Of a stretch of 64,000 nucleotides of DNA, positions 3 through 61,066 are shown piece after piece. The DNA is taken from the IMG/VR virus record IMGVR_UViG_3300012090_000181; one strand, 5' to 3'. The first letter of the stretch is position 1, and each line of letters starts with the position of its first letter. A program made the position numbers and the translations under genes. The DNA comes from a virus. The notes beneath the pieces were generated by a model that was not told the DNA's origin, did not search any database, and saw nothing but the letters and a program-made list of their open reading frames with translations.

Positions 3-509
3 GCAGAAGGCATCCTTTATGGTGGTTCCCCGCGCCTCCATAGCACACAGGTCCTGACCGACCTTGACCCACGCTGGGAGTTCCCCAAGCTTGATGACCA
101 ATCTCTGATAGTTCTGTCCGGGACCACCGGCTACCCATGGAAGGATGCTTTGAGAGACCTGGATACGACAGAGCAGGCAGAACGTGATGAAAGTGAGGTC
201 GAAGATCTGCATCGGATCGGGATCGGCTATGACGGATCCGGGCGGCTCTGGAACATCGTTCGTGTGATCGCCGATTACGGCTCTGGTGAGGAGATGGAAT
301 GGCGCATCTGGGGTGCCGACAAAGGAGCGCCGTTTGGAGAAACCTTTCATCCTGGTCTGGATTATCCGCAGATGGAAGGCGCCGAGATGGTTTTCGAGTG
401 CCGCCATCTCTCGGGTCCTGATGGCGCACCGAAGCGTCGGCCGTCCATCCGGATCGATCAGGACAACCAGGTTACCGTCGACGGCGAAAAGCTGACCGCC
501 TTGATCTGA
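3..509 (+). CDS. ILYG-tagged family B protein (5'-partial)
   Basis: Frame of ORF 150..509 is open back to base 3 and reads AEGILYGGSPR; shares IADYGxGEE with the next gene. Confidence 0.75.
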   Translation, partial: AEGILYGGSPRLHSTQVLTDLDPRWEFPKLDDQSLIVLSGTTGYPWKDALRDLDTTEQAERDESEVEDLHRIGIGYDGSGRLWNIVRVIADYGSGEEMEWRIWGADKGAPFGETFHPGLDYPQMEGAEMVFECRHLSGPDGAPKRRPSIRIDQDNQVTVDGEKLTALI

Positions 510-686
510 CCCGGCATGTTATCCTGGTTCCGGCAGAAGCCGTCAGATCACCAGATTGGCCTAGGACAGATCTGATCGCTGCTCATCCTGAAGCTTTCAG
601 GCAGTTCAATGCAAAGCCAAGTTTTCAGGTAGTTCTTGGATCTGTGCCGACTTGTCTACTTCATCGGCTTCTGCTATCATCTGCTG

Positions 687-1220
687 ATGGCATGTGATCC
701 GTCTTCTCTGGTCGTTCAAGGCCGCTCGGTGCTTTCGGCCTATGAGAGCGAAGACATTCTTTATGGCGCGTTCCCACGCCGGCAGGCCCCTATAGACGAA
801 AGCATCAGCTTATGGGATTTTCCTGCCGCTGCTCGCCGACCATTGAAGGAGTATGGCAACATCGGCTTCGCCTGGATGAACGCTCTGCATGATCTCTACC
901 AGCTCGAGGATCAAGACCTGCTGCACGGCGATGCAATCGAGATCACTCGCCTGGCCGTCGGAACCGTCGATGACAATCATCTGCTGATCGTGAACAAGCT
1001 GATCGCCGATTACGGCTTCGGCGAAGAGGTAGATCTGCAGATCGGATATGCTGCCAAGGGCGATCCAAGGATCCGGCAATCCGTCGTCTCTCACTATCCG
1101 ACCGATGCAAGCTATAAAGGTTTCACCTTCGTCTGCTCACTCGGTCAGATACACATCCTTCATGCTGATGGTGAGAACCAGGGCTATCTCGACGGTGAGT
1201 TGCTGAAACCGCTGGATTAG
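687..1220 (+). CDS. ILYG-tagged family B protein
   Basis: SEDILYG; TATCAT 675-680 then 6 nt then ATG 687; LIVNKLIADYGFGEE similar to gene 3..509. Confidence 0.75.
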   Translation: MACDPSSLVVQGRSVLSAYESEDILYGAFPRRQAPIDESISLWDFPAAARRPLKEYGNIGFAWMNALHDLYQLEDQDLLHGDAIEITRLAVGTVDDNHLLIVNKLIADYGFGEEVDLQIGYAAKGDPRIRQSVVSHYPTDASYKGFTFVCSLGQIHILHADGENQGYLDGELLKPLD

Positions 1221-1337
1221 AACTCCCTGCCAACCCCAGGATACTGAAGCATTCCTGTTCATCCGGCATCATCGAACAGGTAGCGTGACCAGGTGGCAAA
1301 ACCAGGGCCGAGCGCAGGCCGCCGCTATGCTGAAGGT

Positions 1338-1793
1338 ATGCCTCGCGGTCTGAACACGGATACAGCGGAGAATATCCTCTACGGCCGGTATTCCAGAAAA
1401 ACAGCGCTGCCGCAGCTGAAGATACCAGGAGCTACTGATCCGGCACTCTACGTGGGCACAAATTATCATCAGGCGATGCTGGATGTCTGGGATCATGAGA
1501 AGACATTGTCCTTGAGTGGGCGCGTACGCAGGATAGCCGAAGGAACGATCGCCGATGGCCGGAGACTGATCGTGGTCGACAAAGTGACCGCTCTAGGTCT
1601 TGGCAAGGATGTATCCCTCTATCATCTTTGGCATGCCGACATAGGAGCAACCGAGGTCAGACGCGAGAACGGGCACGCGGTTCATGAGGACGGCATCGAG
1701 TTGAAGATAGAAACCGCTGTCGGTGACATCAGCATCAGCGATCTCGGCTCACGGCCAAAGTTCAACGGCTTCGATCTACAGCCGTTGATCTGA
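1338..1793 (+). CDS. ILYG-tagged family B protein
   Basis: MPRG...AENILYG; TATGCT 1326-1331 then 6 nt then ATG; LIVVDKVT..YHLWxAD shared with 2567..3142. Confidence 0.8.
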   Translation: MPRGLNTDTAENILYGRYSRKTALPQLKIPGATDPALYVGTNYHQAMLDVWDHEKTLSLSGRVRRIAEGTIADGRRLIVVDKVTALGLGKDVSLYHLWHADIGATEVRRENGHAVHEDGIELKIETAVGDISISDLGSRPKFNGFDLQPLI

Positions 1794-1809
1794 AACCACC
1801 AACTGCGAC

Positions 1810-2469
1810 TTACTTTCGGCTTTTCCTACGCGGGTGTCTGCGTCTGGCCCCGAGATCGATTCGCTCGACCCAGCCCCAGGCCTGACGCGCGGAGTTGGCG
1901 TAGATCCAGCAATCGGGATCATCTTCCCACGGCTCTTTGTCTCCGAGCGGATCGAGTAGATACCAGAAGCCGGTATATTCGGTCAGCTCTTCTACCGCTG
2001 CCAACCAGTGCGGATTGGAATGGACAGTCTCCTGACGACCGTCCTCCAGGGTGGCCACGATCCTGGTCTTGCAGCCCTGCTTCTTGACCGTCTTGAAATC
2101 GATGACCTGAACCAGGCTTTCCAGACGGGAACGATTCTCGAAGATATCGCGCAGAATGACCTGCGCATCGTAAGAGGCCTCCGGGCCATGATCGCCGCGC
2201 CCACCTGGTTCGGCCGGCAGTTCCGGCTCAGCCTGAATCCACTCCTCCGGGATCTTCGAGGCCTGGGCGAACCAGCGCTGCGTCCCGCTGTACCCGATGC
2301 CGAAACCGATCTTCTCAAAATAGCCGTGGTTCAGATCGAGTTCGAGTGGATCGACCTGCCCGAGCATCGGCGAGTAGGGAGAAGGAGTGTCGATGACCAC
2401 ACCTCGATTGATGTTCAGCGGAGAGCCATAGAGTATCTGCTCCGGATCGATCAGTCGTTGCTCGCCCAT
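1810..2469 (-). CDS. ILYG-tagged family A protein
   Basis: PEQILYG; GYSGTQRWFAQASKIPEEW; LAAVEEL; TATAAT 6 nt before ATG 2469. Confidence 0.8.
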   Translation of the reverse strand: MGEQRLIDPEQILYGSPLNINRGVVIDTPSPYSPMLGQVDPLELDLNHGYFEKIGFGIGYSGTQRWFAQASKIPEEWIQAEPELPAEPGGRGDHGPEASYDAQVILRDIFENRSRLESLVQVIDFKTVKKQGCKTRIVATLEDGRQETVHSNPHWLAAVEELTEYTGFWYLLDPLGDKEPWEDDPDCWIYANSARQAWGWVERIDLGARRRHPRRKSRK

Positions 2470-2566: not shown

Positions 2567-3142
2567 ATGCCAGCTTCCCTTGACGATCTTGGTTCCGCGA
2601 TGAAGGATGGCCCTGAGCCGGTTGAACCTGGTGCCTCGGTTGAACCTGGTGCCTCGGTTGCCGGTATTCTCTATGGTCGAACTCAAGCCCGGAGCAGCAT
2701 CATCGAGCGCGTGGTCGAGAAGGTCATCGGAGCTGTTGATCCGAAAGCTTATGCGGTCACGCCATACTACCTGGCGATGCTGCATCTACTGTCGGCCGAG
2801 GAAGAACTACTGGTCGACGGTCGGGTGGAAAGGGTCATGGCCGGAACGATCTACAATGGCAATCAGCTGATCGTCGTCGATAAGGTCACACCAAAGGACA
2901 AGAGCGGCTTTATTCGCCCGCCCAGGCATTATCAAGAAATGGCAGGTCGGGTGACGCCGATAGATCCGGATACTGCATATCATCTCTGGCGAGCGGACAA
3001 AAAAGACCAGGAGGTCAGTCATATCGAGGTCACTGCTGCTGTCATCCGTGCCGACGGATCATTGCGACTGATGACCGAGGGCGGTGTCTTTCTTTCCTCC
3101 CCGGCCAGCTTCCGAGGTTTCAAGATCAGTCCGCTGACCTGA
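2567..3142 (+). CDS. ILYG-tagged family B protein
   Basis: VEPGASVEPGASVAGILYG; TATCCT 2555-2560 then 6 nt then ATG. Confidence 0.8.
   Translation: MPASLDDLGSAMKDGPEPVEPGASVEPGASVAGILYGRTQARSSIIERVVEKVIGAVDPKAYAVTPYYLAMLHLLSAEEELLVDGRVERVMAGTIYNGNQLIVVDKVTPKDKSGFIRPPRHYQEMAGRVTPIDPDTAYHLWRADKKDQEVSHIEVTAAVIRADGSLRLMTEGGVFLSSPASFRGFKISPLT
2619..2660 (+). repeat. In-frame 18-bp tandem repeat (VEPGAS x2) in tag leader
   Basis: cggttgaacctggtgcct occurs twice plus a partial third unit. Confidence 0.9.
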
Positions 3143-3189: not shown

Positions 3190-3678
3190 ATGGCACGCGG
3201 TAGCTCACATGGTTGTGATACTGGTGACGCGATCCTTTATGGTCGCCAAGAGCGCACTGCCGTGATCGAAACTATCGCGCAAGTCATCGGTGGGCATGAT
3301 ATTGAGGCTTATGCCGAGACCCCTTATCATCGACAGATGCAGATGATCCTGGAACAAGAGCAGGCTCTCGCCGGCTGGTTTCCGGTGGAGAGGATGGTCG
3401 AGGGAGTATATCGGGCCAGTCACCGTTTCGTCCAAAATCTCGCCATGGATCAGCGTCTGCTGATCATAGACAAACTGGATATTCCTACGGATACTGTTTT
3501 TGCCGTCTGGCATGCCTTACCAGACGATGCGGAGCCGACCCGAGAAGTGATCGACAGTAGCTCGATTACCGATGCCGGCTACGAGATATTCGGCGAAGAC
3601 CTGACCATCCGTTATCACACGAAGGGTGATTGGCTGACCTGTGCAGGCCGAACGGTCGAGCCATTGTTTGCCGACTGA
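3190..3678 (+). CDS. ILYG-tagged family B protein
   Basis: MARG...GDAILYG; YAETPYH and RLLIIDK match family B; TAGGAT 6 nt before ATG. Confidence 0.8.
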   Translation: MARGSSHGCDTGDAILYGRQERTAVIETIAQVIGGHDIEAYAETPYHRQMQMILEQEQALAGWFPVERMVEGVYRASHRFVQNLAMDQRLLIIDKLDIPTDTVFAVWHALPDDAEPTREVIDSSSITDAGYEIFGEDLTIRYHTKGDWLTCAGRTVEPLFAD

Positions 3679-7481: not shown

Positions 7482-8033
7482 ATGCAACCTGAAGAGATCC
7501 TCTATGGCTCTGCCCGAGCAACACGTCGGAAGCTGCTTCCTTATCATGAGCGCCCTCCGCTGCCATTGGATTCTGACAACACCGGCACGGCATCTGGGTG
7601 GTTCAAGGATAAAAGCGGCTGGCTCGGAACCGATAACTGGACAGCCAGGTCTCATACGCTGCCCGCTGAGTTTCGGCCGGCTCCGGGGCGCAGACAAGCT
7701 CAGTCGGACCTGAAACTGACCCAATATCCGCTTCGGTTCTTTGATACTACCGTGGTGGATTTCATCGCTCGTGTGGGAGCGCTGCGCGGGCAAGGCCTTC
7801 AGACCGTCGAGCTGCTGTATCGTCCAGCTGCCCCTGATGTAGTGCTTTTGCATCAGTATCAAGGGGATGAGCTGCTGCTTGTGCCGCTGGGTCTGGAAGT
7901 CTCCACAGCTCATCTGGCCGCAGTCGAGACGATACGCAGTCCTGGTAGCTGGATATTCGATCCCCGGCAACAGCTACTCTATCTGAAAGAAGCCGGAGCT
8001 GGTGTCATCAGCGGCATGGTTCGCTGCCGTTGA
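7482..8033 (+). CDS. ILYG-tagged family A protein
   Basis: MQPEEILYG; SGWLGTDNWTARSHTLP; HLAAVETI..GSW. Confidence 0.8.
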   Translation: MQPEEILYGSARATRRKLLPYHERPPLPLDSDNTGTASGWFKDKSGWLGTDNWTARSHTLPAEFRPAPGRRQAQSDLKLTQYPLRFFDTTVVDFIARVGALRGQGLQTVELLYRPAAPDVVLLHQYQGDELLLVPLGLEVSTAHLAAVETIRSPGSWIFDPRQQLLYLKEAGAGVISGMVRCR

Positions 8034-10129: not shown

Positions 10130-10546
10130 ATGGACGGCGGTACAGAACACGATCTGGTTCCAGACGAGAGTGATGAGCAGATCGATGCTTCCATCCTGGC
10201 AGACCGCGCCGATGCCACCCCCGATGGCGATGCGATCCTCTACGGTCATGGCCGCGATGAGCAGACCGAGCAGCGTCGGGAGATCGACCGCCTGCGCAGA
10301 CAAGTAGAAGCCAAGGATAAGCAGTTGGCGATCTATAAGGAGCAGATGAAAAAGATCACTGCGAGCGTTGACCAGCTACAACAGCGTATCCAGGAGATGC
10401 AATATCATGCCTCACGGGCCGAGAAGAGACTTCATCGGCAGACGCAATACGCGGCCGCATCCAAGCAGCAGGAGAGCATCGCTGATGTAGATGATGAGCA
10501 GAATAAGAGTATCTTCTCGCGCGGCTTCTTCGGTTGGTTACGCTGA
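10130..10546 (+). CDS. ILYG-tagged coiled-coil protein
   Basis: GDAILYG, long heptad stretch, C-terminal SIFSRGFFGWLR; TATCAT 6 nt before ATG. Confidence 0.75.
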   Translation: MDGGTEHDLVPDESDEQIDASILADRADATPDGDAILYGHGRDEQTEQRREIDRLRRQVEAKDKQLAIYKEQMKKITASVDQLQQRIQEMQYHASRAEKRLHRQTQYAAASKQQESIADVDDEQNKSIFSRGFFGWLR

Positions 10547-12676: not shown

Positions 12677-13321
12677 TCAGCTGCCATCTGGCACTTCTAC
12701 GTTGACACTGCCGATGATTTCCCCATCATAGACATAGACCAGCTCCCGGTAATAGTGAAAGTCATCTTCGGTCCCATGATGATAGAACTTCCAGCTGCCA
12801 TCGGTCGTGGTCAGCGTTTCCACTGCTGCCAACTGATCAAGGCCGGCGCTGAGGGTCTCGCCTGTAAGTATCCGTCTGAATGCCCCATTCGGGCCGGCGT
12901 GGTAAGGGCCGATGCCTGCGACCCTCCGCTTGATGTCGATACCATACTTGAAGTCGGTGAAGCCGCTGCTCCCTGCCGAGTATTCATCGAGCATCAGCTC
13001 AAGGTATTCTTGTTGCATCTCGACGACGTAAAGATCGATCGCGGTCGCATCATCGCTGATCCAAGCTTGAGGCAGAGCCTCCACTTTGGCCAGCCACTCG
13101 GTTCCGACTCCACTCCATCCATGGAAGTTTTCATAAGCTCCAGTTGGTAGTCCGGCCAGTTTCAGATTGACCTTCTCTACCCAACGATTATCCGACGACG
13201 GCCATGATGCCGTCTGTTTCGACCCTGGAGAGAAATCCCCATAAAGAATGGCATCGGCGTTGGCACCAGGTTCAACCGAGGGACCAGGTTCAGAGGATGG
13301 TATCATGTCAGGTTTCTTCAT
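12677..13321 (-). CDS. ILYG-tagged family A protein
   Basis: VEPGANADAILYG; GWSGVGTEWLAKVEALPQAW; QLAAVETL..GSWKFY. Confidence 0.8.
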   Translation of the reverse strand: MKKPDMIPSSEPGPSVEPGANADAILYGDFSPGSKQTASWPSSDNRWVEKVNLKLAGLPTGAYENFHGWSGVGTEWLAKVEALPQAWISDDATAIDLYVVEMQQEYLELMLDEYSAGSSGFTDFKYGIDIKRRVAGIGPYHAGPNGAFRRILTGETLSAGLDQLAAVETLTTTDGSWKFYHHGTEDDFHYYRELVYVYDGEIIGSVNVEVPDGS

Positions 13322-13324
13322 CAG

Positions 13325-13972
13325 TCATCTCCTGGGATCATTCCATGCGACCAGTTTGCGTTCTCCGACCGAGGCAGAACCCAGTAAGCGCCCTGTTTCA
13401 AGCTCACGATACACCAGCTCGGTGTAGTTGCAGTCATCAGCGTGTTCACATGAATGGTGGTAGAAAGACCACTCGCCGACGGTATCGACCAAAATCTCGA
13501 TTGCCTGGAGTTGATGCCGATTGACGTAAAGCTCGGACAGTGATCTTGGGAGCTGAAGTATGGGCATGCCTTCTGAATCACAGGGCAAGATCCGCAGCAG
13601 GTCATCGTCTATCACTTGATGATCGAATCGAGTAAAATGCCTATCCTCGTCAGCGTCAGCCTGAAAAGTTTCCAGATACTCTTGTTGAACAGTAAGCACA
13701 TGCACATCAGCGGCGGCTATCTCAGCAACAGCATCAGTGTAGGAAAGCCAGACTCTCATAAGGTCAGGAGATGCAGCCAACCACCTCTCGGAGCCACCAG
13801 AAAAGCCGCCAAGTCGATTCTCGAAAACCTCACCCAAGAACAGCTGTCGCGGGTCGATCTTGTCCACCCAAGCTCCGGGAACCCGGCTTGATACAGCGGC
13901 TTTCGCCTGACAACATGTAGGGAAACGCCCATACAAAATCTGTTGTGCATCCCTGAGCGTATCGCCATCCAT
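13325..13972 (-). CDS. ILYG-tagged family A protein
   Basis: AQQILYG; GFSGGSERWLA; HQLQAIEIL..GEWSFY. Confidence 0.8.
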   Translation of the reverse strand: MDGDTLRDAQQILYGRFPTCCQAKAAVSSRVPGAWVDKIDPRQLFLGEVFENRLGGFSGGSERWLAASPDLMRVWLSYTDAVAEIAAADVHVLTVQQEYLETFQADADEDRHFTRFDHQVIDDDLLRILPCDSEGMPILQLPRSLSELYVNRHQLQAIEILVDTVGEWSFYHHSCEHADDCNYTELVYRELETGRLLGSASVGERKLVAWNDPRR

Positions 13973-14673: not shown

Positions 14674-15264
14674 TCACCAGATGCCAAGATCTACTGCTGC
14701 TCTGACCTCACGTCTGGTTCTGCCATCGGTAGACACGTCAGCAAGGTATATCAGCTGTTGCCAGGTGCCCATATGACTGGACTCTGATACCTGGAACTCG
14801 CCTTCGCCGAGCAGCTGGACGATGGCTCTCAACGGATGGATGTTGATCAAGAAACTATCTTGACCGGCGAGAGCGCCCAACTGTAGAGGATGCTCGAGTT
14901 GCAAGGAAATCTGTTCGGGATCATCGGTCACCTCCAGGTGGCAAGCCTGCCGATGATCAGTGTCCAGCGGTCGCGAATCATCCAGTGTCCGCTGCTGTTT
15001 GTAGATCATGATCAGCGCGTATTGAAGAAAGCTCTTTTCCTGAAGCGGATAGTCCTGCATCCAGATGGCAGGGAGGTCGGTGGTATCGGCTATCCAGCCC
15101 AGACCGCCACTCCAGCCCATTTCCGGATCGGAGAAGAAGCCGTCCATTCCCAGCTGATCAGGATCCACCTGAGAGCAGAGCAGCTTGGCCATCAAGGTCG
15201 GGGACAGACGGCCCGTGCAGGAACGATCCAAGGCTCCATAAAGAATTTCATCTGCGATCTGCAT
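14674..15264 (-). CDS. ILYG-tagged family A protein
   Basis: MQIADEILYG; GWSGGLGWIADTTDLPAIW; TAATG stop/start overlap with the upstream gene. Confidence 0.8.
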   Translation of the reverse strand: MQIADEILYGALDRSCTGRLSPTLMAKLLCSQVDPDQLGMDGFFSDPEMGWSGGLGWIADTTDLPAIWMQDYPLQEKSFLQYALIMIYKQQRTLDDSRPLDTDHRQACHLEVTDDPEQISLQLEHPLQLGALAGQDSFLINIHPLRAIVQLLGEGEFQVSESSHMGTWQQLIYLADVSTDGRTRREVRAAVDLGIW

Positions 15265-15911
15265 TATTCTTTTATCACTTGCGTCTGCTCTCCGGTATCA
15301 CCGATGATCGTCACACAGCCCAAGGGTTCATTACCGGCAAGGTAAAGCATACCAAAGAAATAGCTTCCATTCAGCATCAACTGCTCGACCCCGATCCATT
15401 CTGGCACATCGTCCAGATCCTTGTCGGCAAACAGTTCCTCGATCAAGGCCATCGGATGGGCATCACCGGGTAATCCGCTCTCGTCGATTGCCGGCTGGCT
15501 GTCAAGGATGCATCGTAGTGGCTCACGCGGATAAACCCAGACGATGTCCTCGTCCTCATCAGCATGCAGGTCTACGGCCACCTGCCACTGTGGTTCGACC
15601 CCGAGCTCGGCGACCTCCTGATCCAATAGCAGTCGCTTGATCAAAGTATGCATCAACTTCGGCACCTGCTCGATTCTCCGGTCAGGTCGATACTCCTCCG
15701 GCAGGCTCTCGGTCCTGGCCACCCAGGTCTCTCCCCCGACCCATGTTTCCTGATCGTACTCAGCGCCTTCGAAAAATGACTGTCCGAGCATCAGCGGATC
15801 GACCTCGGCCGGCCGCCAGTTCTGTGATCGGTGCAACAGCTGGGCATCGCCATAAAGAATGGAATCACTGTTCGTCATCGAACTTGAAGGGATACCATGA
15901 TCAGCGGCCAT
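15264..15911 (-). CDS. ILYG-tagged family A protein
   Basis: SDSILYG; WVGGETWVARTESLPEEY; TAAAAT 6 nt before ATG. Confidence 0.8.
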   Translation of the reverse strand: MAADHGIPSSSMTNSDSILYGDAQLLHRSQNWRPAEVDPLMLGQSFFEGAEYDQETWVGGETWVARTESLPEEYRPDRRIEQVPKLMHTLIKRLLLDQEVAELGVEPQWQVAVDLHADEDEDIVWVYPREPLRCILDSQPAIDESGLPGDAHPMALIEELFADKDLDDVPEWIGVEQLMLNGSYFFGMLYLAGNEPLGCVTIIGDTGEQTQVIKE

Positions 15912-20672: not shown

Positions 20673-20678
20673 CCGGTA

Positions 20679-45372: not shown

Positions 45373-46332
45373 ATGGGACGAGGCAATGGTGCGGAAGAGA
45401 TCCTCTATGGCCAGGTAGGCCCGCGTTCTTTCTCGGAAGATCGCCTCTTGAGCGAGCTGTATGCCGAGATCCGCAAGCATGCGCAAGATGGAGGCCTGCA
45501 TGGATTGAGCAGTGTCCCCGAAGACTTCTTCCCTTTCCTGGCCATCGAAGCAGCTTCCATCGACGCTGACGTGCCTGATCCTCGGATAGGTCAGATGATC
45601 AGGCACGTCGGAGAATGGATCTGTTCTGACAGTGTGACCGCTGATACCGTCCAAGCTGCTTACCAGCTGTTGGCCTATGCTCCGGCCATCGCATACGGGA
45701 CGCAGGCCGACGGGAGCCGGCTTGATGACACTTATCAGCGCCTGCTACAGAAGTGTCTGGCCTACAAGATGGCCTATGTCAATCCGGAGCGGGAAGCATT
45801 GGACAATCGGATCATGGAGTTGATGCAGGCTCGTGATCTGAAACCGAAAGTGCTGCCTCGATTGACCGCCAAATCAGAGAAGACGCATCTTGGGCCGACG
45901 CATTACATGGACAAGAGCGGTAAGATGACTGCTTGTGGCTGCGAGATCCGCTTCACCGGGAATCAAGGAGCGGACGGCTGGGTCTCGGACATCGCCCGCT
46001 CTGATCCAGCCGCACTGTCAGCTTCTGATGGTGAGGCCGGCGATCCTACCTGTCGTCGCTGCGCCGGCAAAGACATCGCCGAAGTGGGTACTGCGCCCTT
46101 GGCTTTTGACGAGCAAAGCTCTCATCTGTCCCGTGCGATAGACACCGAAGTTCCACGGAAGATGCTGACCGAGTTTGCCCGAAGGGAGCCAAGCCATCCA
46201 TTGGGCATACAGAAGATGATCGAAAAGGAAATATGGTCAGTTGCCGTGCGCTCGCTGCTCTTGGAGGAGCCGCTCAGTGATCATGACCTGGATTACCTCG
46301 CCGAGCTTGAACCAGGCGACGTGATCATCTGA
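45373..46332 (+). CDS. ILYG-tagged family C protein (Zn motif)
   Basis: MGRGNGAEEILYG; QLLAYAP; H..TACG...CRRC; TATCCT 6 nt before ATG. Confidence 0.8.
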   Translation: MGRGNGAEEILYGQVGPRSFSEDRLLSELYAEIRKHAQDGGLHGLSSVPEDFFPFLAIEAASIDADVPDPRIGQMIRHVGEWICSDSVTADTVQAAYQLLAYAPAIAYGTQADGSRLDDTYQRLLQKCLAYKMAYVNPEREALDNRIMELMQARDLKPKVLPRLTAKSEKTHLGPTHYMDKSGKMTACGCEIRFTGNQGADGWVSDIARSDPAALSASDGEAGDPTCRRCAGKDIAEVGTAPLAFDEQSSHLSRAIDTEVPRKMLTEFARREPSHPLGIQKMIEKEIWSVAVRSLLLEEPLSDHDLDYLAELEPGDVII

Positions 46333-46491: not shown

Positions 46492-47484
46492 ATGACTGTA
46501 GAGAACGACAGCGCTGATATTCTCTATGGAGATACCCTGGCACGAACCGAGAGCGAGCTTGACAGGTCCGTGCGCCTTGATTGGATCAGCAAGGAAGTAG
46601 AAGAGGTAGAGCAATCGAAGCATAATGCCGGTTTGACTGTCTCTGACATTCCTGGTGATTTCCTTCCACTACTGGAGGCGGGCATGCCCGCTGATGAGCG
46701 TGTGCCTCGGCTGATCGAAGTCCTCGGCGGACGCTGGTTGTGCAATACCAGTAACAGCTACGGGCCGGATGAGCTGGAGATGATCTTCAAGCTGTTGGCC
46801 TGGGGTCCGGCGGCAGCAACTGCTTCCGGACCATCGGCGTATATTGCCGATGCGATCACCTATACCTGGGCCAACCTGATCAAGGCTGCCATCCGCCTTG
46901 CCGGCCGGCAAGGCTGGAGGACGCAACTCGAACAGGCGTTTCAGAAGCAGCTCGATCAAAAGCAGCTTCCGTTCTCCGAGTTTCCTGATCTGGTCGCCTT
47001 GGCTCGTCCTAATGCCTATTCTCCGGAAGATGCCGAACTGGTCACGCAGGGTCGCATCCATTGCCGAAGCACTGACCCGGACAGGACCGTCTGTGGCCGT
47101 TCTGTCTCGGTGATAGGTGATGCTTCGGCAACATGGCAGTCGGTGCCTCGGGTCAAGAAAGACAACCCGCTGGAGTTACTGGATGAACCCGAGTGCGGGC
47201 AATGTCGCCATCAGATGATCCAGACCGATCCGAATCGACTGATTGCCGCTTATAGACCGTTGGATGCCGGCGAACTTGCATCGCGTACTCTGGCCCGAGC
47301 GCGAGAGGAGATACCCCGGGAATGGAATGCCGATCAAGATGAGCTCAACTGCCGGCACACGCCTGCATGGGTAAGACAGAAACTGGCGGCTTCATTATGG
47401 CGTTGCGCCATCAGCTCGCTGCTGCTGAAACAGCCTCTGGATGCAGATGATGACGCGCTGTCGGCGACATCACCGCTGACCTGA
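46492..47484 (+). CDS. ILYG-tagged family C protein (Zn motif)
   Basis: SADILYG; KLLAWGP; H..TVCG...CGQC; TACAAT 6 nt before ATG. Confidence 0.8.
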   Translation: MTVENDSADILYGDTLARTESELDRSVRLDWISKEVEEVEQSKHNAGLTVSDIPGDFLPLLEAGMPADERVPRLIEVLGGRWLCNTSNSYGPDELEMIFKLLAWGPAAATASGPSAYIADAITYTWANLIKAAIRLAGRQGWRTQLEQAFQKQLDQKQLPFSEFPDLVALARPNAYSPEDAELVTQGRIHCRSTDPDRTVCGRSVSVIGDASATWQSVPRVKKDNPLELLDEPECGQCRHQMIQTDPNRLIAAYRPLDAGELASRTLARAREEIPREWNADQDELNCRHTPAWVRQKLAASLWRCAISSLLLKQPLDADDDALSATSPLT

Positions 47485-48624: not shown

Positions 48625-49590
48625 TCAGAACGGGATTTCCTTGCCGGCAGCATCTTCTTGTTCGCGGATCGCCTGAAGCTCCTTCCAGGTCTTCAGTTCC
48701 TTGAGCCATTCTTTCTCATCGTATTTCTTGTCGAACAGATACCAGGCGTAGGCAAGCCGGGGATCTTCTATTGCCGGACCGTCAGTACGATGGAGCATCC
48801 CCTTGCGATGCCACTCTTTATGGAGATACTCGGTGCCTTCATCGTCGCGCACCTTGTAGATCATCGCCGGTCCATCAGCGCGATGCCGATACCCATCCTT
48901 GTAATACTCCAGGTCACAAAGATCAGCCGAGACGATGGCCGGTAGTGAAGCGCCGGTGCTGTCAGGATCACGATGGAGGAGACCATGCTTGTACCATTTC
49001 TCGGTGCCGTCAGCAGCGATGTAGGCCGGGCCATCTTTCCGATGTAGGTCTCCTTCCAGTCTCCACTCCTGGCTGCCATCGGCGTTGATCGCGGTCGGCC
49101 CACCTGCGCGCTCCGTCAGGCCGTGCTGATACCAGTGTCGGCTGCCATCGTCCTTGATGATCGCAGGCTTGTCGTCATCACGGTGCAGCCGTCCTTGATA
49201 CCACCACTCACTGCATTCAGCGCTTATGACAGCCGGCTGATCTTCGTCACGATGCCGTAGTCCATGCAAGAAGTATTCTTCTCGATCAGGATAAATCACT
49301 GCCGGACCTATCGCGCCGTCAGCGTCCGGATCACGATGCGGTAGGCCTGCATCATCAACCCAGACCTCGGCAGGCCCGGTCACGCTTGCGGTCGATCCAA
49401 ACAGACGATTACTACCTGCATCGAGTTCCAGTTTGACAAGTCGACCACTCAGGTCCAGATACTCGATACGATCCTTATGGACGACGGCATGAAGCGTCGT
49501 CAGTACCTGATTCAGAGAAGGCCCAGAGCGGACAGGAGCGCTTCCGTAAAGAAGTTCATCGACACTGTCTCCATTTCCACGCATGATCAT
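48625..49590 (-). CDS. LLYG-tagged MORN-like repeat protein
   Basis: MRGNG..VDELLYG; about eight LHRxDGPAxIxxxGxxxWYxxG units. Confidence 0.8.
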   Translation of the reverse strand: MIMRGNGDSVDELLYGSAPVRSGPSLNQVLTTLHAVVHKDRIEYLDLSGRLVKLELDAGSNRLFGSTASVTGPAEVWVDDAGLPHRDPDADGAIGPAVIYPDREEYFLHGLRHRDEDQPAVISAECSEWWYQGRLHRDDDKPAIIKDDGSRHWYQHGLTERAGGPTAINADGSQEWRLEGDLHRKDGPAYIAADGTEKWYKHGLLHRDPDSTGASLPAIVSADLCDLEYYKDGYRHRADGPAMIYKVRDDEGTEYLHKEWHRKGMLHRTDGPAIEDPRLAYAWYLFDKKYDEKEWLKELKTWKELQAIREQEDAAGKEIPF

Positions 49591-49711: not shown

Positions 49712-50728
49712 ATGCGTGGGACAGGGATGACAGCCGAGGGATTGACAGCCGAGCAGATCCTCTATGGCCGTGGCCAGTCCCGCGAGATCAGTGAGAGAAC
49801 CAAGCTTCAGAACTTGGAGACTTTGATGGAAGAGGCCGATCTCGCCGCCGAAGGGATCCGCGAGGAGTGCATGGATTATGAGAGTGTCCCGGCCTTGTTC
49901 TTCCATATGTTGTCGGCCGGAACTTTCCCCGAGGGCCGCGAGCATCATGAGCAGGTGGCCCAGGTGATCACGCGGATGATCCGCTGGATCGACCGGGCGC
50001 CGTTCCTGGCCCTGGAGAAATCCCATCCACAAGTTTTGCAGGTTCTCGCTTATGCTCCGAGTATCGTCGGGCAACTGGGCACGACCCAGATCACTCCGGC
50101 CTATGAGCGCCTGGTCAACAGCTATCTGAAGTATTACCGTGGCTGTAAGCCTGCGCATGCCGAACGGGTCGATGACAGACTGACCGAGCTGCTGAACAGC
50201 GATGATCACCAGTCGAAGTCCTATCCGGTCTTGATGGAGCCGGAGCCGGATACGCGTCGGGTCTATGGTGGAAAATCGACCGGGGCCAGACATCTGGTCT
50301 TGTCCAATGGGCGACGTACCCCATGCGGTGTCTCCATTCCTGATCGCCATGATCGTCATGTCAGCAAGCACTGGCGGGGCGTGACCCGGACCAAGGACGA
50401 GCGTGCGGACTATTGGGAAGCCTTGTTCCGCAAGTATGATCCTGACTCTGAGCTGAAGATCGGGATCACCTGCAGTAAGTGCAAGAAGCACGCTGACAGC
50501 GATCAGATCAAGCGCTCACCGTTGAGTGACCATGAGCAACTGATCCATGCTCATGCTCATGTACGCAAGACGGTCCCTTTCCTGTTCGTGGCCTCACTCG
50601 ACGAAAAAGCACATACCCCGGAAGAGATCGAGCGACGACTGCAAGAGCTGATCTGGCAGCAATCGCTTGAGGCGCTACGACTGAAAGCAGATCTCGATGC
50701 TGATGAGCGCGCCCGGATCGTTCTTTGA
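49712..50728 (+). CDS. ILYG-tagged family C protein (Zn motif)
   Basis: MRGTG..AEQILYG; QVLAYAP; H..TPCG...CSKC; TAAGAT 6 nt before ATG. Confidence 0.8.
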   Translation: MRGTGMTAEGLTAEQILYGRGQSREISERTKLQNLETLMEEADLAAEGIREECMDYESVPALFFHMLSAGTFPEGREHHEQVAQVITRMIRWIDRAPFLALEKSHPQVLQVLAYAPSIVGQLGTTQITPAYERLVNSYLKYYRGCKPAHAERVDDRLTELLNSDDHQSKSYPVLMEPEPDTRRVYGGKSTGARHLVLSNGRRTPCGVSIPDRHDRHVSKHWRGVTRTKDERADYWEALFRKYDPDSELKIGITCSKCKKHADSDQIKRSPLSDHEQLIHAHAHVRKTVPFLFVASLDEKAHTPEEIERRLQELIWQQSLEALRLKADLDADERARIVL

Positions 50729-50780: not shown

Positions 50781-51227
50781 GTGACGTATGACAAGAGCAC
50801 CATACCCGATTTTTTTGATCCACTCCAAGCGGCACGAGCCCGGCTTGCGATCAGCGTCATGATCTGCTATCCTATGCGCAACATTGCGACTTCTGGAGCC
50901 CAGATGAAACCAAAGAACAGTTCTTCTCGTATCGAAAATATCCGCACGATCATGGCCTTGGTCTTCGTCATCGCCATGTTCATCAGTTTGATCACCGGCC
51001 CTGGATGGCTGGTATGGCCATGCGTTGCCGGTATCATCATCAGCATCGGCCTGAAACAGTCGCTTTCGCTCTACAGTCCTGCATATGTGTTCAGCGCGGT
51101 GATCAGTTTCGTGATCCTGAAGTTGATCGGCGTAAACGGCATCATCGGACTGCTGGCGGTGCTGACCGCTGCCTTCTGGGCCGATCATCGCTGGCGCAAG
51201 AGCCGTCCTGTCGATGATGCTGCCTGA
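50781..51227 (+). CDS. Membrane protein (about 4 TM)
   Basis: Hydrophobic helices; start uncertain. Confidence 0.55.
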   Translation: MTYDKSTIPDFFDPLQAARARLAISVMICYPMRNIATSGAQMKPKNSSSRIENIRTIMALVFVIAMFISLITGPGWLVWPCVAGIIISIGLKQSLSLYSPAYVFSAVISFVILKLIGVNGIIGLLAVLTAAFWADHRWRKSRPVDDAA

Positions 51228-51657
51228 CGGGATGATGGCCGGGAACGGTTCCATCGGAGAGATCCTCTATGGTGATATGCCGCGCCTACATATCACCTCC
51301 TCTCCAGATAGCGAAGTCGTAGAGTTCGACGTTGCCGAGCGGATATTGCTGGCAGACACCGCGCACTTGTTTTATCTGTGTGGGTCCGTCGGCCGACACC
51401 GGCCCCGGCTGTTGGAACTGTCCGACGATCTTCAAGTTTATACCGAGCAAGGCCATAAGTTGTCCCCGGAGCAGTTCTCCGAGGCGCTGTTGGTATTTTC
51501 AGCTGCTGCCGATCAGCTTGCCAAAGGATTGGATACCGAAGCCGCACGAGCAGCGGGATATATTACCAGCTCGGGAGCTTTTGCTCAGATCGACAGAAGT
51601 TATTCAGGTCTGAACGAGATCATCGCCCGCCTAGGATCGCTCTGCGAACAGTCTTGA
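51214..51657 (+). CDS. ILYG-tagged singleton
   Basis: SIGEILYG near N-terminus; overlaps stop of previous gene. Confidence 0.7.
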   Translation: MMLPDGMMAGNGSIGEILYGDMPRLHITSSPDSEVVEFDVAERILLADTAHLFYLCGSVGRHRPRLLELSDDLQVYTEQGHKLSPEQFSEALLVFSAAADQLAKGLDTEAARAAGYITSSGAFAQIDRSYSGLNEIIARLGSLCEQS

Positions 51658-52703: not shown

Positions 52704-53270
52704 ATGCCAGGCGTTGATTCAGATACCATCCTCTACGGTCAGACCAGTTCGCGTGGTCGGCTTCAAGGATCGGTCGGCAAGATGGATGATGAGTTGTCGC
52801 CATCGAGGACGGGAACCGTCGATGGCTATTTCGAGTATCTGGATCACTGGTTGGCCTGGTCAGGAACCGAGCGCTGGGCGGTGCTCAGGACTGATCTCCC
52901 CGCCGATCTGCTGCCGGACGCCAGACGGTCTGTACGCCTGAAGCAGCCGATCACGCGCCTGTGTGAGGTCAGATGGTTCGGCATCACCCCAAAGACGCAA
53001 CTGGATACGTGCAACGTAGAGAATGCCAAAGACATCTACGATGGGCTGAATGGATGGTGGCAACAGGTGACCTATTCCACTTCTGCCGAGCCGGCCTTGG
53101 TGCTGACCTCACACCTGCGAGCGGTCGAACACTGCTGCGGACCAGGTATCTGGCGGTATTCCAAACCTTATGATGCCCTTGGCTACGTCCAGTTCTCGGA
53201 ACCGGATAAAGTCGGGAAGGTCGTCGGCCTGATCCGCTGTGATCAGGATCATCCACCCAGACGGCGCTGA
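52704..53270 (+). CDS. ILYG-tagged family A protein
   Basis: PGVDSDTILYG; AWSGTERW..LP; HLRAVEH..GIWRY; ggagg RBS. Confidence 0.8.
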   Translation: MPGVDSDTILYGQTSSRGRLQGSVGKMDDELSPSRTGTVDGYFEYLDHWLAWSGTERWAVLRTDLPADLLPDARRSVRLKQPITRLCEVRWFGITPKTQLDTCNVENAKDIYDGLNGWWQQVTYSTSAEPALVLTSHLRAVEHCCGPGIWRYSKPYDALGYVQFSEPDKVGKVVGLIRCDQDHPPRRR

Positions 53271-56075: not shown

Positions 56076-56492
56076 CTATCTCATATCCTTCTGCCGTCCG
56101 GCTTCGGTGAGAGCGTAGGTCCATGATTGCCGTCCCAGCTTCAACTGGAGGAAACCGTCGTTTCTCAGCTCCTTGCATGCCTGGGTCAAGAGCTGGTAAT
56201 CAGTAGTCCCTTCATCAGCCGATGGCTCCTTTTCTTTCGCCGGTGCATGCCGCAGACACAGATCCAGTTGCGGTAGCGTCATCTCGGTATATCCGGTATA
56301 TCTGCCGCCGCCGGCCTCGACGGTCTGAAAAGCTTTTATTATCGCTGCTTTCATCTCCGCCGAAGGATAGGCATGGCTCCTGTTATCGGATGATCTTGTC
56401 GCCATCCGTTCAAGACCATAGAGGATCCCATCAGCGCCCGCATCGGCGTATGCCTCCTGTGCCTGGCTGCTCATGCTGTCTCTGATGGTCAT
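56076..56492 (-). CDS. ILYG-tagged protein with wHTH-like C-terminus
   Basis: ADGILYG; ACKELRNDGFL..YALTEAG; TATGTT 6 nt before ATG. Confidence 0.7.
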   Translation of the reverse strand: MTIRDSMSSQAQEAYADAGADGILYGLERMATRSSDNRSHAYPSAEMKAAIIKAFQTVEAGGGRYTGYTEMTLPQLDLCLRHAPAKEKEPSADEGTTDYQLLTQACKELRNDGFLQLKLGRQSWTYALTEAGRQKDMR

Positions 56493-57607: not shown

Positions 57608-58183
57608 TCAGATCATCAAATAGCCGAGCAGCGCCGCTGGTTCGGCTGCGTCATCGACGTAGAGCAAGAACCGATCAGGATCGCCATGGGTCGGCAGGAT
57701 ACTGGTGAGATAACGCCACTCGCCCTGGATGCCGACGGATCTTTCCAAGATCGCCATCCGGCCTGCACGGGTGACCAATGGGAGATCCTTGGCCGCTTTC
57801 TCTGCCTCCAACTCCAGCAGTCCCGGAGCGATCTCACTGCTTACCCTGACCACTGAAAGATCCTTGCGCTTGGCCTGGTCTTTCAAGAATTTTATGTGAT
57901 CTTCGGCGAGCGGAGGAGGATCAACCGGCTCGAAGTGATAATCTGCGATCAGCTGGTCAGGAATGTCAGCGCTCCGGATGCCCCAATCAGTCCCACCGGC
58001 GAAGCCTTGACAATCAGTCCAATAGCTACGGTCATCGGCCAGCGGCAGCTCATCATGAGTGATCACCGTCGGCCACCATTGCTTCGGTTCGACCAAGAGC
58101 GGAGCCGGCCGTTGTCCGGACGGTCGGGCCAGATCTCCATAAAGAATATCGTCAGGGCTGCTGATCGAAGTCCCACCTCGCAT
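57608..58183 (-). CDS. ILYG-tagged family A protein
   Basis: MRGG..PDDILYG; GFAGGTDWGIRSADIP; GEWRY..LLYVD..LLGYLM. Confidence 0.85.
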   Translation of the reverse strand: MRGGTSISSPDDILYGDLARPSGQRPAPLLVEPKQWWPTVITHDELPLADDRSYWTDCQGFAGGTDWGIRSADIPDQLIADYHFEPVDPPPLAEDHIKFLKDQAKRKDLSVVRVSSEIAPGLLELEAEKAAKDLPLVTRAGRMAILERSVGIQGEWRYLTSILPTHGDPDRFLLYVDDAAEPAALLGYLMI

Positions 58184-58303: not shown

Positions 58304-58927
58304 TCAGTCGATCATGTACCAACCGAGCAACTGGCTCTCGGAGTGGGTTCGATCGACGTAGAGCATCGTCCGGAATCCTATCTTGTCAAAATAGGTCTCA
58401 TGATATAGCCACTCAGCGGCGGTCTTGGATTGCTGCTCGATGAAAGCCAGCACATGCGTATTGGCCGAAAGGACATCCAGTTCCGCATCTGCCGATCCGG
58501 CAGGCATCACCGACCACCAAGAATCACCTGAGCCGCTTCGATGCAGTTCGGAGACGAACTCGATCGGCTTCAACCCGTCATCAGCGAATGCCGTCGTCCG
58601 AAAATGATCGACCCAACGGGTCTCATCCTCTCCTGGAGGCCGCTGCCGAGAGCTGAGCTCGCGGGCGCGGGAGACAGAGAAAACGACCGGCGGGATCTTC
58701 GCATCGTTCAGCTCAGACGGAAGAGATACGCTCCGCACACCCCAGTAGAAGTTACCGCTGTAGCCCTGATGATCGACGAAGAAAGTATGGTCATCGACCA
58801 GCAGCCTGCTCAGGTCCAGTTTCAGCGGCCAATAGTTCTGCCTGGTGACCGGGCCGGCCGACCCCACGCGCGGCCCAGAAGCACCATAGAGGATCTCCTC
58901 TGCCATCTGTGATCGCCCGCGCGCCAT
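58304..58927 (-). CDS. ILYG-tagged family A protein
   Basis: MARG..AEEILYG; GYSGNFYWGVRSVSLP; MLYVD..LLGWYM. Confidence 0.85.
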   Translation of the reverse strand: MARGRSQMAEEILYGASGPRVGSAGPVTRQNYWPLKLDLSRLLVDDHTFFVDHQGYSGNFYWGVRSVSLPSELNDAKIPPVVFSVSRARELSSRQRPPGEDETRWVDHFRTTAFADDGLKPIEFVSELHRSGSGDSWWSVMPAGSADAELDVLSANTHVLAFIEQQSKTAAEWLYHETYFDKIGFRTMLYVDRTHSESQLLGWYMID

Positions 58928-59433: not shown

Positions 59434-59483
59434 ACAGGTGCCAGACAGTTATGTAGTTCATTCGCTGCTGATGTTGTGTGGCT

Positions 59484-60032
59484 TCAAGTTGCATAGAGAC
59501 GCCAGCCGAGGAGTTGCGGCTCGGTATCGCTGCAGTCGAGATAGAGAAGATGCCGTAGTCCCTCACTATCTTTCCACATCCAGCTTCCTTCTGTCGCGCT
59601 GATCTGCTCGATCGCGGTCATGAAACTGGTGTCGGCGCGCTTACGATAGTTCGGCAATCCCTCGAAATAAAGCTCCCACTCACGAGAGCCTGCTTTCCTG
59701 ATCTCCACCTCACCGAGATCCTCGGGAGATCTTGCCATATCGATCAGCTTATCCACGAACTGATCTACTTGCGGCGAGGTATCATTCTGCCTCAGCTGCT
59801 TTCGTAGATCTTGCGGTAGCGTCCGACTCCGGGCGCCCCAGAAGGTCCAGCCACTGAAACCGAGATGATCCTGAAAATATGAGGTTCCGAACTTACGAAA
59901 AATCGAGTAGTCGATCTCATCGACCCAGTACTCCTTTGGCAGCAGGACCCTGGCCTCGGCTTTTGCCCCCCGGGCAGTAGTCACCCCGTAAAGGATATTG
60001 TCAGCCCCTGTATCTGTCTGCCCACGACCCAT
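59484..60032 (-). CDS. ILYG-tagged family A protein
   Basis: MGRG..ADNILYG; GFSGWTFWGARSRTLP; LLYLD..LLGW. Confidence 0.85.
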   Translation of the reverse strand: MGRGQTDTGADNILYGVTTARGAKAEARVLLPKEYWVDEIDYSIFRKFGTSYFQDHLGFSGWTFWGARSRTLPQDLRKQLRQNDTSPQVDQFVDKLIDMARSPEDLGEVEIRKAGSREWELYFEGLPNYRKRADTSFMTAIEQISATEGSWMWKDSEGLRHLLYLDCSDTEPQLLGWRLYAT

Positions 60033-60112
60033 GAGACCAGGATAGCAAAGATCCCTGTATCTGCTGATGTTGCATATGGCGAAAGGCGGCTCCAGAAAAG
60101 CGCCTGCTCTGA

Positions 60113-60424
60113 TCAGCGATCTTCTAGCTTGTCGATCCGGCGAGGGCTGATCTTTTTGGTGACGATAAAACTGGTGCCTCCTTCGGTGGCAAAGTCCTCG
60201 ACCATCTGCGGATCCAATCCTTCGGCATCGATCTCATATACGAAGCCACCATACTCTCCGGCCTCGTCTGCACTGTCGGTCAGGTATACGGCTCGCTTCT
60301 CGCCGCCGGTCAAACCTGTATCATACGGGGTCAGGCCGCGCTTGTCGGCTTCTGAATAGTTGGTACCATGATATAAGCGTGGCACCATGTTCTTCGGCTG
60401 ATCGCCTCCCTGTCCTCGTCCCAT
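60113..60424 (-). CDS. MGRG-start small ART-fold-like protein
   Basis: LYHGT..RGL..VYLT..AGEYG.FVYEI; paralog of 37147; TATCCT 6 nt before ATG. Confidence 0.55.
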   Translation of the reverse strand: MGRGQGGDQPKNMVPRLYHGTNYSEADKRGLTPYDTGLTGGEKRAVYLTDSADEAGEYGGFVYEIDAEGLDPQMVEDFATEGGTSFIVTKKISPRRIDKLEDR

Positions 60425-60475
60425 ATGTGTAGGATAAGGGATCGGCGGCGCGGCTGCCGACTATCATCATACCCA

Positions 60476-61066
60476 TCAGACCATGATCCAGCCAAGCAGC
60501 TGATGCTCATCAGCCTTCGGATCAACGTAGAGGATGAACTGCTGACTACTGCTTTTCCTGAAAAGGCTCTTCCCGCTGCCAGGAGCATAGATCCATTCAC
60601 CCTCGATCATGCTCTGTTGTTCGATGAATGCCAGCAGACTTGCCTCGGCATTGAACCAGGTATCGACCACTCCTTTGATCTCCAGCCAATAGGCATCCAG
60701 GCCGATTTTATCACCCATGGTAACTCGCGGATATTCATCAGCATGAGCTGCCCGCGTCTTCAAGGCAGACAGCTGGTAAAGCAATGCCGAAGGCGGCTCG
60801 TCGACATGCATCCTGCTCATCAACTCATCAGGCAAGTACTGACTGCGAACGCCCCATGAGTGATACCCACTGTATCCTTCCAGATCCAGAGAACAGATGT
60901 TCCCACGCGTGGCTACAGTCGAGTAATCGATCACGTCCGGCCACCACTCCTTGGGCTGGACCAGTTCAGTCTGATCGCTCTTGGGCAGGCGCGAACCGGC
61001 TTCTCCATAGAGGATGTTCTCAGCTCCGGTGAGGTACTCCTGCTCAGGTCCGCGATCAAGAATCAT
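60476..61066 (-). CDS. ILYG-tagged family A protein
   Basis: AENILYG; GYSGYHSWGVRSQYLP; ILYVD..LLGWIM; TATCAT 6 nt before ATG 61066. Confidence 0.85.
   Translation of the reverse strand: MILDRGPEQEYLTGAENILYGEAGSRLPKSDQTELVQPKEWWPDVIDYSTVATRGNICSLDLEGYSGYHSWGVRSQYLPDELMSRMHVDEPPSALLYQLSALKTRAAHADEYPRVTMGDKIGLDAYWLEIKGVVDTWFNAEASLLAFIEQQSMIEGEWIYAPGSGKSLFRKSSSQQFILYVDPKADEHQLLGWIMV

Follow-up and report, generated by a model that had tools for sequence, protein, structure and literature searches.

A near-invariant N-terminal ILYG motif on unrelated soluble proteins: a candidate leader in an uncultured, apparently actinobacteria-like bacterium

The question raised by the IMG/VR virus record IMGVR_UViG_3300012090_000181, analysed here as a stretch of 64,000 nucleotides (the window), is why so many of its open reading frames (ORFs), whose products otherwise appear unrelated, should carry the residues Ile-Leu-Tyr-Gly (ILYG) close to their N termini. 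The original prediction, made from the sequence alone, had listed 36 such ORFs and proposed that the tag is an undescribed docking or targeting signal, for instance one for packaging into a phage capsid. Our analysis leads us to regard ILYG, tentatively and with rather less than even confidence, as a lineage-specific modular N-terminal leader that is read in trans, most likely a targeting or export signal outside the Sec and Tat pathways.

All 36 listed ORFs were recovered in a six-frame scan of the window with a strict pattern, [DEQ]-x-[IL]-L-[YF]-G, and a loose one, [IL]L[YF]G, the latter lying in each case 5–35 residues from the chosen start codon. The strict pattern, originally given for the whole set, describes 32 of the 36; the ORFs at 2567, 22861, 46492 and 51214 have A, G or M at position −2. 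It matched 33 times in the window, i.e. the 32 tags and one stray (EVLLFG at 32242), compared with a mean of 0.46 strict matches and 0.98 ILYG in mononucleotide shuffles of the window (maximum 3), so that the N-terminal tags are enriched approximately 30- to 70-fold. A second control, 1.41 Mb of Solirubrobacterales loci, contained no ILYG tetrapeptide. Without exception, the 33 occurrences of ILYG in the window are N-terminal tags, and where the loose pattern matches elsewhere, at six places (LLFG, ILFG, LLYG), it does so in short spurious ORFs or in a transmembrane (TM) helix. The tag is missing, as had been claimed, from ProB, RNase Z, CysRS, DinB, PncA, NADAR, the ABC transporter and all TM or signal-peptide proteins. 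With 36 of roughly 100 window genes tagged, and the rates in the two 10-kb flanks as listed in Table 1, the share of tagged genes in and around the window is about 30%. In all, about 184–190 kb of DNA was read, about 126 kb from the window organism and about 58 kb from a second organism (organism 2; soil metagenome JGI 3300018432, GC 47–50%), and a deliberately loose scan of 184 kb from both, in which a few chance matches are possible, gave approximately 103 candidate tagged ORFs, which BLAST sorted into about 41 clusters, 51 of the ORFs belonging to family A (see below). A search of the available literature gave no paper linking ILYG to an N-terminal motif and none citing the accession of the sequencing run; as an N-terminal signal, ILYG appears to be undescribed.

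The bodies behind the tag are unrelated. BLAST comparison of the 35 complete ORFs resolved them into families of 18 (A), four (B) and three (C) members and ten singletons, giving at least 13 body groups, and after removal of the tag HHalign gave a probability below 3% in all 33 comparisons of the three families with one another and with the ten singletons, similarity between body groups ending within about 10 residues past ILYG. The bodies range from 99 to 338 aa and include α/β, β-hairpin repeat, coiled-coil and Cys-rich architectures. Nor do the tagged proteins share one fold, which would have reduced the pattern to simple paralogy: a family-A member was modelled by AlphaFold2 as an α/β domain (pLDDT 74) and a 321-aa protein as a single-layer β-hairpin repeat (pLDDT 65), for which the best high-probability Foldseek rows were MORN1 and junctophilin. 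Family A, with 18 copies in the window that include runs at 12677–21326 (an 11-gene array) and 57608–61066, has conserved body motifs (G[WFY]SG[TS]xxW, LPxxW, AVExL and GEW). Its model found no significant match in the PDB (Foldseek, best E 0.05) and only uncharacterised proteins of about 150 aa among the AFDB clusters, and a wide VIA-align search reached a best Z of 4.4, sliding-clamp rows at Z 3–4 being within noise. Family C has no homolog among 5.8 billion proteins and a poor Atlas model (pLDDT 0.40), a search for relatives of a 157-aa tagged singleton returned only itself, and scans of the tagged proteins against Pfam, NCBIfam, PHROG and PADLOC gave no match at curated thresholds, only sub-threshold noise of coiled-coil type. 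The tagged proteins are acidic (median pI 4.9) and have no hydrophobic region near the N terminus, the best 12-residue Kyte–Doolittle window within the first 70 aa having a median of 0.75 (maximum 1.72) as against 2.6–3.3 in the signal-peptide and TM proteins of the window. Such a profile (soluble, acidic, native in composition and without a known family) is what gene sets that are exported or effector-like and driven by conflict typically show.

When the sequences are anchored on ILYG the consensus is [A/P/V/S]-[D/E/Q]-x-I-L-Y-G-x3-4-R, in which a conserved Arg lies 4–5 residues downstream of the core and the preceding leader, of 5–35 aa, is variable in sequence. Many tags are bipartite, with M-x-R-G at the terminus, a polar spacer usually of 5–11 residues and then the ILYG core; 13 tagged window proteins begin with M-(A/G/P)-R-G, and the complete N terminus of the ORF at the window edge (3..509), visible in the flanking locus L094, reads MGRG...EGILYG. 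About five to seven further window ORFs, a few doubtful short frames included, begin with M-(A/G/P)-R-G but lack ILYG. Because the Arg-Gly start is present without ILYG and, unlike ILYG, also on enzymes, it is a wider N-terminal mark than ILYG. The leader is also modular. Both models place the tag, with a short helix over D-x-I-L-Y-G, in an N-terminal arm of low confidence (pLDDT about 35–59), where it is not packed on the body, and one β-repeat family has four tagged members, one with MGRG only and one with neither, so the leader has been gained and lost independently of the body. Directly 5′ of the ILYG codons in two unrelated genes, at 2624–2653(+) and 13262–13291(−), is an 18-nt tandem repeat encoding VEPGAS/VEPGAN that is identical at 29/30 nt; it looks like a variable-length spacer, or the trace of recombination between leaders.

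Several further observations concern the leader and its variants. A VEPGxx run also precedes the tag in P0124, a family-A representative from elsewhere. In three family-A metagenome representatives (P0041, P0097 and P0110) the tag takes the form N-V-L-[YF]-[DE]-P, Asp or Glu replacing Gly, so the Gly is not strictly necessary in some members of the lineage. The ORF at 23967–24404(−) ends in ...PLVADDILY followed by the stop codon, i.e. the tag core minus its Gly. Of the RG-start proteins without ILYG, one has a CYTH domain and another is weakly similar to LigT/Acb1-like 2H phosphoesterases (Pfam E about 6e-4); several are orphans.

The window belongs to the 1.10-Mb contig k141_311054 (ENA ERZ27241870 / SRR6448512), from a 2018 run labelled fungus metagenome. 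Given its size and its housekeeping genes (CysRS, ProB and DinB in the window, SecA and PheS in other pieces), the replicon is chromosome-like and not a phage; other pieces also encode a DUF11-type giant surface protein, YkuD, a sulfatase, Fic and DNA methylases, and carry further tags (Table 1). The tagged ORFs, which cover 20.7 of the 64 kb, have GC contents at the three codon positions (GC1/GC2/GC3) of 0.63/0.43/0.63, compared with 0.63/0.45/0.64 in the housekeeping genes of the window. The phage version of the original prediction, in which tagged proteins are packaged into a capsid, must consequently be given up: the contig is cellular, the GC signature is housekeeping-like and no tagged protein matches a phage family. 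The CysRS has its best identity (59%) to metagenome-assembled genomes of Solirubrobacterales, Atlas neighbours are Actinomycetota, and the top score of SecA among solved structures is to SecA1 of Mycobacterium tuberculosis; the organism looks like an uncultured actinobacteria-like bacterium associated with soil or fungi. The leader occurs in two organisms, organism 2 having 5–11 tagged genes on each of six contigs (6.7–9.1 kb) and several more on two others, and sharing with the window genome an RNase Z-like protein (55% identity). A family-A profile search of 1.84 billion representative proteins gave 125 clusters at 50% identity, and 97 of the 106 non-window clusters keep [ILV][LI][YF]G in the first 70 residues, 56 starting M..RG. 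A narrower family-A alignment search found three contigs, all from one soil sample, and the nine non-window representatives whose source was looked up all came from two samples (fungus and soil metagenome); a sample of 401 Actinomycetota genomes, drawn evenly, and one Solirubrobacterales genome yielded no family-A member. The sequence TAnnnT, often TGCTAnnnT, lies 5–8 nt before the ATG of 28/35 tagged as against 8/23 untagged genes (JGI calls), some untagged genes carrying GGAGG instead. TAnnnT close to the ATG is the leaderless arrangement of Actinobacteria and Deinococcus, and promoters of this type in 28/35 tagged genes suggest that these have a common mode of expression.

It is important to consider whether ILYG is maintained as a peptide, since the same pattern might be produced by an element, ATY CTY TAY GG, acting in leaderless mRNA or in DNA, for example by influencing ribosome binding, by hiding a start codon or by serving as a site of recombination, with the peptide only incidental. 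The synonymous codon variation previously cited is real but incomplete in the window genome, where the tag Leu is CTY in 37/39 cases compared with 29% of Leu codons in gene bodies; TAT is also enriched, giving an out-of-frame ATG. However, outside the tags too (window and locus L082) Leu before Tyr is CTC or CTT in 48/74 cases (65%), CTG being the commonest Leu codon overall (47%), so most of the CTY bias is a matter of codon-pair context; both organisms avoid Leu codons ending in G where TAY follows. In organism 2 the tag Leu is encoded by TTA, CTA, CTT, CTC and CTG. The Arg of MxRG is drawn from both CGN and AGR codons, and the flanking acidic and Arg positions are conserved as amino acids only. 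Within family A, whose 18 members are only 17–28% identical in pairs (typically about 22%), M1, I, L and G of the leader are invariant and Y nearly so (one ILFG). The contention that selection acts on the peptide is upheld by this conservation and by the five Leu codons of organism 2. The frames opened by the out-of-frame ATG inside TAT-GG are mostly of 26 codons or fewer and are not conserved. This, the codon variety of organism 2 and the sevenfold spread in distance from the 5′ end (5–35 codons) make a nucleic-acid function highly improbable.

A relic of common descent, in which one ancestor gave rise to all the tagged genes and the bodies diverged past recognition while the N terminus was conserved for intramolecular or homo-oligomeric structural reasons and kept uniform by gene conversion, would draw on the low identity within family A, from which decay to undetectable similarity is conceivable, on the repeat stretch shared by leaders of unrelated genes together with identities of 14–18 nt around the ILYG codons, and on Ile and Leu codons that co-vary (ATC-CTC versus ATT-CTT) along the tandem array. 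We consider it improbable, since the bodies differ in architecture, since tagged, MGRG-only and untagged members occur in one repeat family, and since the tag is unpacked from the body in both models. A processing site or conditional degron, in which a dedicated endopeptidase would cut at or inside ILYG, either for maturation or to create a ClpS–ClpAP N-degron for timed turnover of a large regulon, is unlikely but has more to recommend it: the conservation resembles that of a protease site, with a tight core of 4–6 residues behind a variable leader and a conserved Arg downstream; leaders of only 5 residues are hard to see as a docking arm; and cleavage would expose Leu or Tyr, classical bacterial N-end-rule residues recognised by ClpS. 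Leader cleavage is known from Prp acting on the L27 leader and from plasmepsin V acting on PEXEL. A ClpS gene does lie among tagged genes on one organism-2 contig, but ClpS is universal and its proximity therefore means little; moreover, the conserved terminal M-x-R-G would be superfluous for a pure cleavage site, and neither a protease candidate beside the tagged genes nor any sign of a truncated or mature form was seen. The tag might instead be a hub-binding motif without a sorting role, docking proteins on an abundant cytosolic chaperone, scaffold or modifier (a kinase, or a ligase whose target is the Tyr or Arg) much as clamp-binding and SSB-tail motifs do. A short motif on a disordered arm, acidic before and basic after, does resemble DnaK-type and other short linear motif sites, and genes for possible modifiers (an R2K ATP-grasp enzyme, APH-type kinase-fold proteins and Fic) are scattered among the tagged genes; two ORFs of about 311–330 aa on organism-2 contig L087 might conceivably be of similar type. 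Yet no partner is consistently linked to them, motifs of this kind are normally carried by conserved, functionally related proteins and not by lineage-specific orphans, and the extreme N-terminal requirement is better suited to targeting, so that we judge hub binding rather unlikely.

The reading we favour is still that of a leader read in trans. A single shared partner would recognise, on a flexible arm, a free N-terminal Arg-Gly together with the ILYG core, and the tagged proteins would be sent out of the cell, or to a common structure or machine. The leader has been retained, acquired or dropped irrespective of the body in dozens of unrelated proteins, which are soluble, acidic, fast-evolving and lineage-restricted and for the most part apparently expressed from leaderless promoters of their own. 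Recognition in trans and sorting are what we infer from the distribution of the motif, and targeting or export fits best because the motif is at the extreme terminus, is found on soluble orphans only, accompanies huge, fast-diverging paralog families and is excluded from Sec substrates. Several points weigh against it. No receptor, translocase or protease was identified in the approximately 126 kb of the window organism and 58 kb of organism 2, and no RNA run containing either tagged organism was found. The local cargo share of about 30% is far above that of any known compartment, capsid or injection cargo set, which argues for a more general pathway or for another role (processing, degron or hub binding). 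The CTY frequency in the tags exceeds even the level seen for Leu before Tyr elsewhere, so some nucleotide constraint or gene conversion is possible, and the family-A and MORN-like models are of moderate confidence only.

Should the tag rate hold genome-wide, there would be hundreds of substrates. A new general pathway, in which a bipartite, non-hydrophobic signal, RG plus D/E-x-I-L-Y-G-x3-4-R, addresses hundreds of orphans to a dedicated translocase or to a structure inside or outside the cell, is doubtful but far from negligible; if it exists, its cargo might make up a quarter of the proteome or even more, a new pairing of signal and machine on the scale of Sec or Tat. Shared terminal peptides have earlier led to new machines, as with exosortase, rhombosortase, the type IX secretion system and encapsulins. 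ILYG is unusually sharp, being a near-invariant tetrapeptide, as well as abundant and confined to proteins without a known family, and so defines a testable cargo list through which a large part of microbial dark matter can be approached directly. It also marks the orphan genes of this lineage as real, selected genes, and might be attached to other proteins to steer their delivery or turnover in hosts resembling actinobacteria.

Among the genes beside the tagged ones (Table 1), that directly upstream of the 11-gene family-A array encodes an ATP-grasp enzyme of the R2K clade (Pfam R2K_3, E 8e-28), possibly a protein-modifying ligase. A multi-copy untagged family, whose genes often adjoin tagged ones, is characterised by the motifs (A)LGYRxW, WxPGxNxAxC, HxAPxxxCxCGxYA and GAxAxxGxxxHxxGxRxE; in some members the C terminus carries two or three TM helices, and the Atlas neighbours of this family, which has no Pfam family, are hypothetical proteins of Actinomycetota and actinophages. 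Untagged conflict-type genes found amid the tagged ones encode an HNH nuclease with treble-clef fingers (DUF4379), Fic and two cytosine DNA methylases.

Table 1. Tagged ORFs of the window, tag counts elsewhere on the contig, and untagged features among the tagged genes
Feature	Location	Strand	Remarks
Tagged ORF, open at window edge	3..509	+	EGILYG at residue 2 of open frame; clusters with 687
Tagged ORF, family B	687..1220	+	EDILYG
Tagged ORF, family B	1338..1793	+	MPRG start; ENILYG
Tagged ORF, family A	1810..2469	-	EQILYG
Tagged ORF, family B	2567..3142	+	AGILYG; VEPGAS hexapeptide repeats precede tag
Tagged ORF, family B	3190..3678	+	MARG start; DAILYG
Tagged ORF, family A	7482..8033	+	EEILYG, just 5 residues from Met
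Tagged ORF, coiled-coil singleton	10130..10546	+	DAILYG, 35 residues from Met
Tagged ORF, family A	12677..13321	-	DAILYG; spacer of EPGPS/VEPGAN repeats
Tagged ORF, family A	13325..13972	-	QQILYG
Tagged ORF, family A	14674..15264	-	DEILYG
Tagged ORF, family A	15264..15911	-	DSILYG
Tagged ORF, family A	15978..16643	-	(V)ARG start; DGILYG
Tagged ORF, family A	16728..17381	-	DRILYG
Tagged ORF, family A	17378..17986	-	QDILYG; AlphaFold2 model made
Tagged ORF, family A	18073..18678	-	QEILYG
Tagged ORF, family A	19403..20005	-	MRG start; DDILFG
Tagged ORF, family A	20082..20672	+	MARG start; DSILYG
Tagged ORF, family A	20679..21326	-	DNILYG
Tagged ORF, singleton	22451..22861	-	GTG start; MEILYG
Tagged ORF, 99-aa singleton	27436..27735	+	QTILYG
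Tagged ORF, Cys-rich singleton	27819..28295	+	QMILYG
Tagged ORF, singleton	28346..28714	-	QDILFG
Tagged ORF, singleton	33705..34076	-	DEILYG; adjoins CysRS
Tagged ORF, singleton	35586..36059	+	MRG start; EEILYG; apparently untagged homolog in organism 2
Tagged ORF, family C	45373..46332	+	MGRG start; EEILYG
Tagged ORF, family C	46492..47484	+	ADILYG
Tagged ORF, β-hairpin (MORN-like) repeat protein	48625..49590	-	MRG start; DELLYG; modelled
Tagged ORF, family C	49712..50728	+	MRG start; EQILYG
Tagged ORF, singleton	51214..51657	+	GEILYG
Tagged ORF, family A	52704..53270	+	DTILYG
Tagged ORF, singleton	56076..56492	-	DGILYG
Tagged ORF, family A	57608..58183	-	MRG start; DDILYG
Tagged ORF, family A	58304..58927	-	MARG start; EEILYG
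Tagged ORF, family A	59484..60032	-	MGRG start; DNILYG
Tagged ORF, family A	60476..61066	-	ENILYG
Contig piece	799.6-820.2 kb		about 11 tags
Contig piece	960.6-981.2 kb		7 tags
Contig piece	1020.8-1041.5 kb		about 9 tags
Right flank	10 kb right of window		4/17 genes tagged
Left flank	10 kb left of window		1/18 genes tagged
M-[A/G]-R-G starter without ILYG	window 11580	-	
M-[A/G]-R-G starter without ILYG	window 21428	+	
M-[A/G]-R-G starter without ILYG	window 40587	+	
M-[A/G]-R-G starter without ILYG	window 43803	-	
M-[A/G]-R-G starter without ILYG	window 53575	+	
M-[A/G]-R-G starter without ILYG	window 60424	-	
M-[A/G]-R-G starter without ILYG	L094 1914-2750		
M-[A/G]-R-G starter without ILYG	L093 19410-20492		
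R2K-clade ATP-grasp enzyme	window 11691-12671	+	
Multi-copy untagged family	window 47871-48602	+	
Multi-copy untagged family	window 32892-33686	+	
Multi-copy untagged family	L093 15210-15788		
Multi-copy untagged family	L094 4819-5616		
Multi-copy untagged family	L086 3142-3762		
Multi-copy untagged family	L091 1102-1845		
Untagged conflict-type gene	window 54249-55787	-	
Untagged conflict-type gene	L089 4833-5450		
Untagged conflict-type gene	L089 6054-7148		
Untagged conflict-type gene	L089 16541-17527		

How, then, does the ILYG leader compare with known targeting systems? A Sec signal has a hydrophobic h-region of 10–20 residues after a basic n-region, and a Tat signal has in addition S/T-R-R-x-F-L-K; the tagged N termini contain neither an h-region by Kyte–Doolittle analysis nor a twin-arginine consensus. 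T4-type capsid-targeting sequences occur in phage genomes that also encode a head, a portal and a prohead protease, and are cleaved at L/I-x-E, but here the contig is cellular, the tagged proteins have no specific PHROG match and their GC content is that of housekeeping genes. The double-glycine and prochlorosin-type leaders are similar in being conserved leaders of 15–30 residues that end in Gly, with diverse C-terminal parts and many paralogs per genome; they differ in their cut-site consensus of GG, GA or GS, preceded by E at −8 and L at −7, in preceding small peptides and not folded proteins of 99–338 aa, and in depending on a cognate ABC transporter with an N-terminal C39 peptidase. The ILYG core ends in Y-G, 0/35 tags read ...GG and no C39 domain was found, the sole ABC ATPase of the window consisting of ABC_tran alone with a 6-TM permease as partner, and we have rejected a leader of this type.

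Microcompartment and encapsulin cargo peptides likewise form a short, terminal, modular address on a flexible linker, and the short helix that AlphaFold places over the ILYG motif recalls them. However, microcompartment encapsulation peptides form amphipathic helices of some 18 residues, have no set sequence and are carried by a few enzymes, as against about 30% of local genes for ILYG. Such systems are recognised by a bacterial microcompartment (BMC) shell gene, BMC-H or BMC-P, or an encapsulin gene, together with a few enzyme cargos bearing an amphipathic helix or a GSL-type C-terminal peptide; no BMC shell or encapsulin family was present in gene calls covering about 150 of the approximately 190 kb read, and the number of cargos and their lack of enzyme domains speak against membership. 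The cargo signals of type III secretion systems (T3SS) and extracellular contractile injection systems (eCIS; PVC) are also polar, disordered, non-hydrophobic N-terminal regions of about 20–50 residues on unrelated, fast-evolving and lineage-specific effectors, but they have no strict consensus, whereas ILYG is nearly invariant, and their cargo sets are far smaller and usually encoded near the machine operon. The DNA read showed no gene for a T3SS or an eCIS, and T3SS are not known from actinobacteria, which the organism resembles. Substrates of type III, type IV, type VII or eCIS export would be identified by a genome that encodes the machine and by export that depends on it.

Two further systems combine a conserved N terminus with diverse proteins. 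The BclA-type exosporium motif of Bacillus is, like ILYG, a short conserved N-terminal motif on different proteins, which it brings to a single supramolecular structure in a process linked to cleavage at the N terminus. It differs from ILYG in its LIGPTLPPIPP-like sequence, in being carried by a handful of proteins instead of hundreds and in belonging to another phylum. The mycobacterial PE/PPE proteins, substrates of type VII secretion, have folded helical domains of 110–180 residues with a YxxxD/E signal, unlike the conserved part of the ILYG proteins, which spans some 10–25 residues without a detectable domain. A PE/PPE-like domain was accordingly rejected, given that similarity across groups ends about 10 residues after ILYG, that the arm is of low pLDDT and that the bodies score below 3% in HHalign. 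In their massive lineage-specific expansion against an actinobacterial background, their conserved N terminus and variable C terminus and the scattering of their genes along the chromosome, the PE/PPE proteins nevertheless resemble the ILYG-tagged proteins described here.

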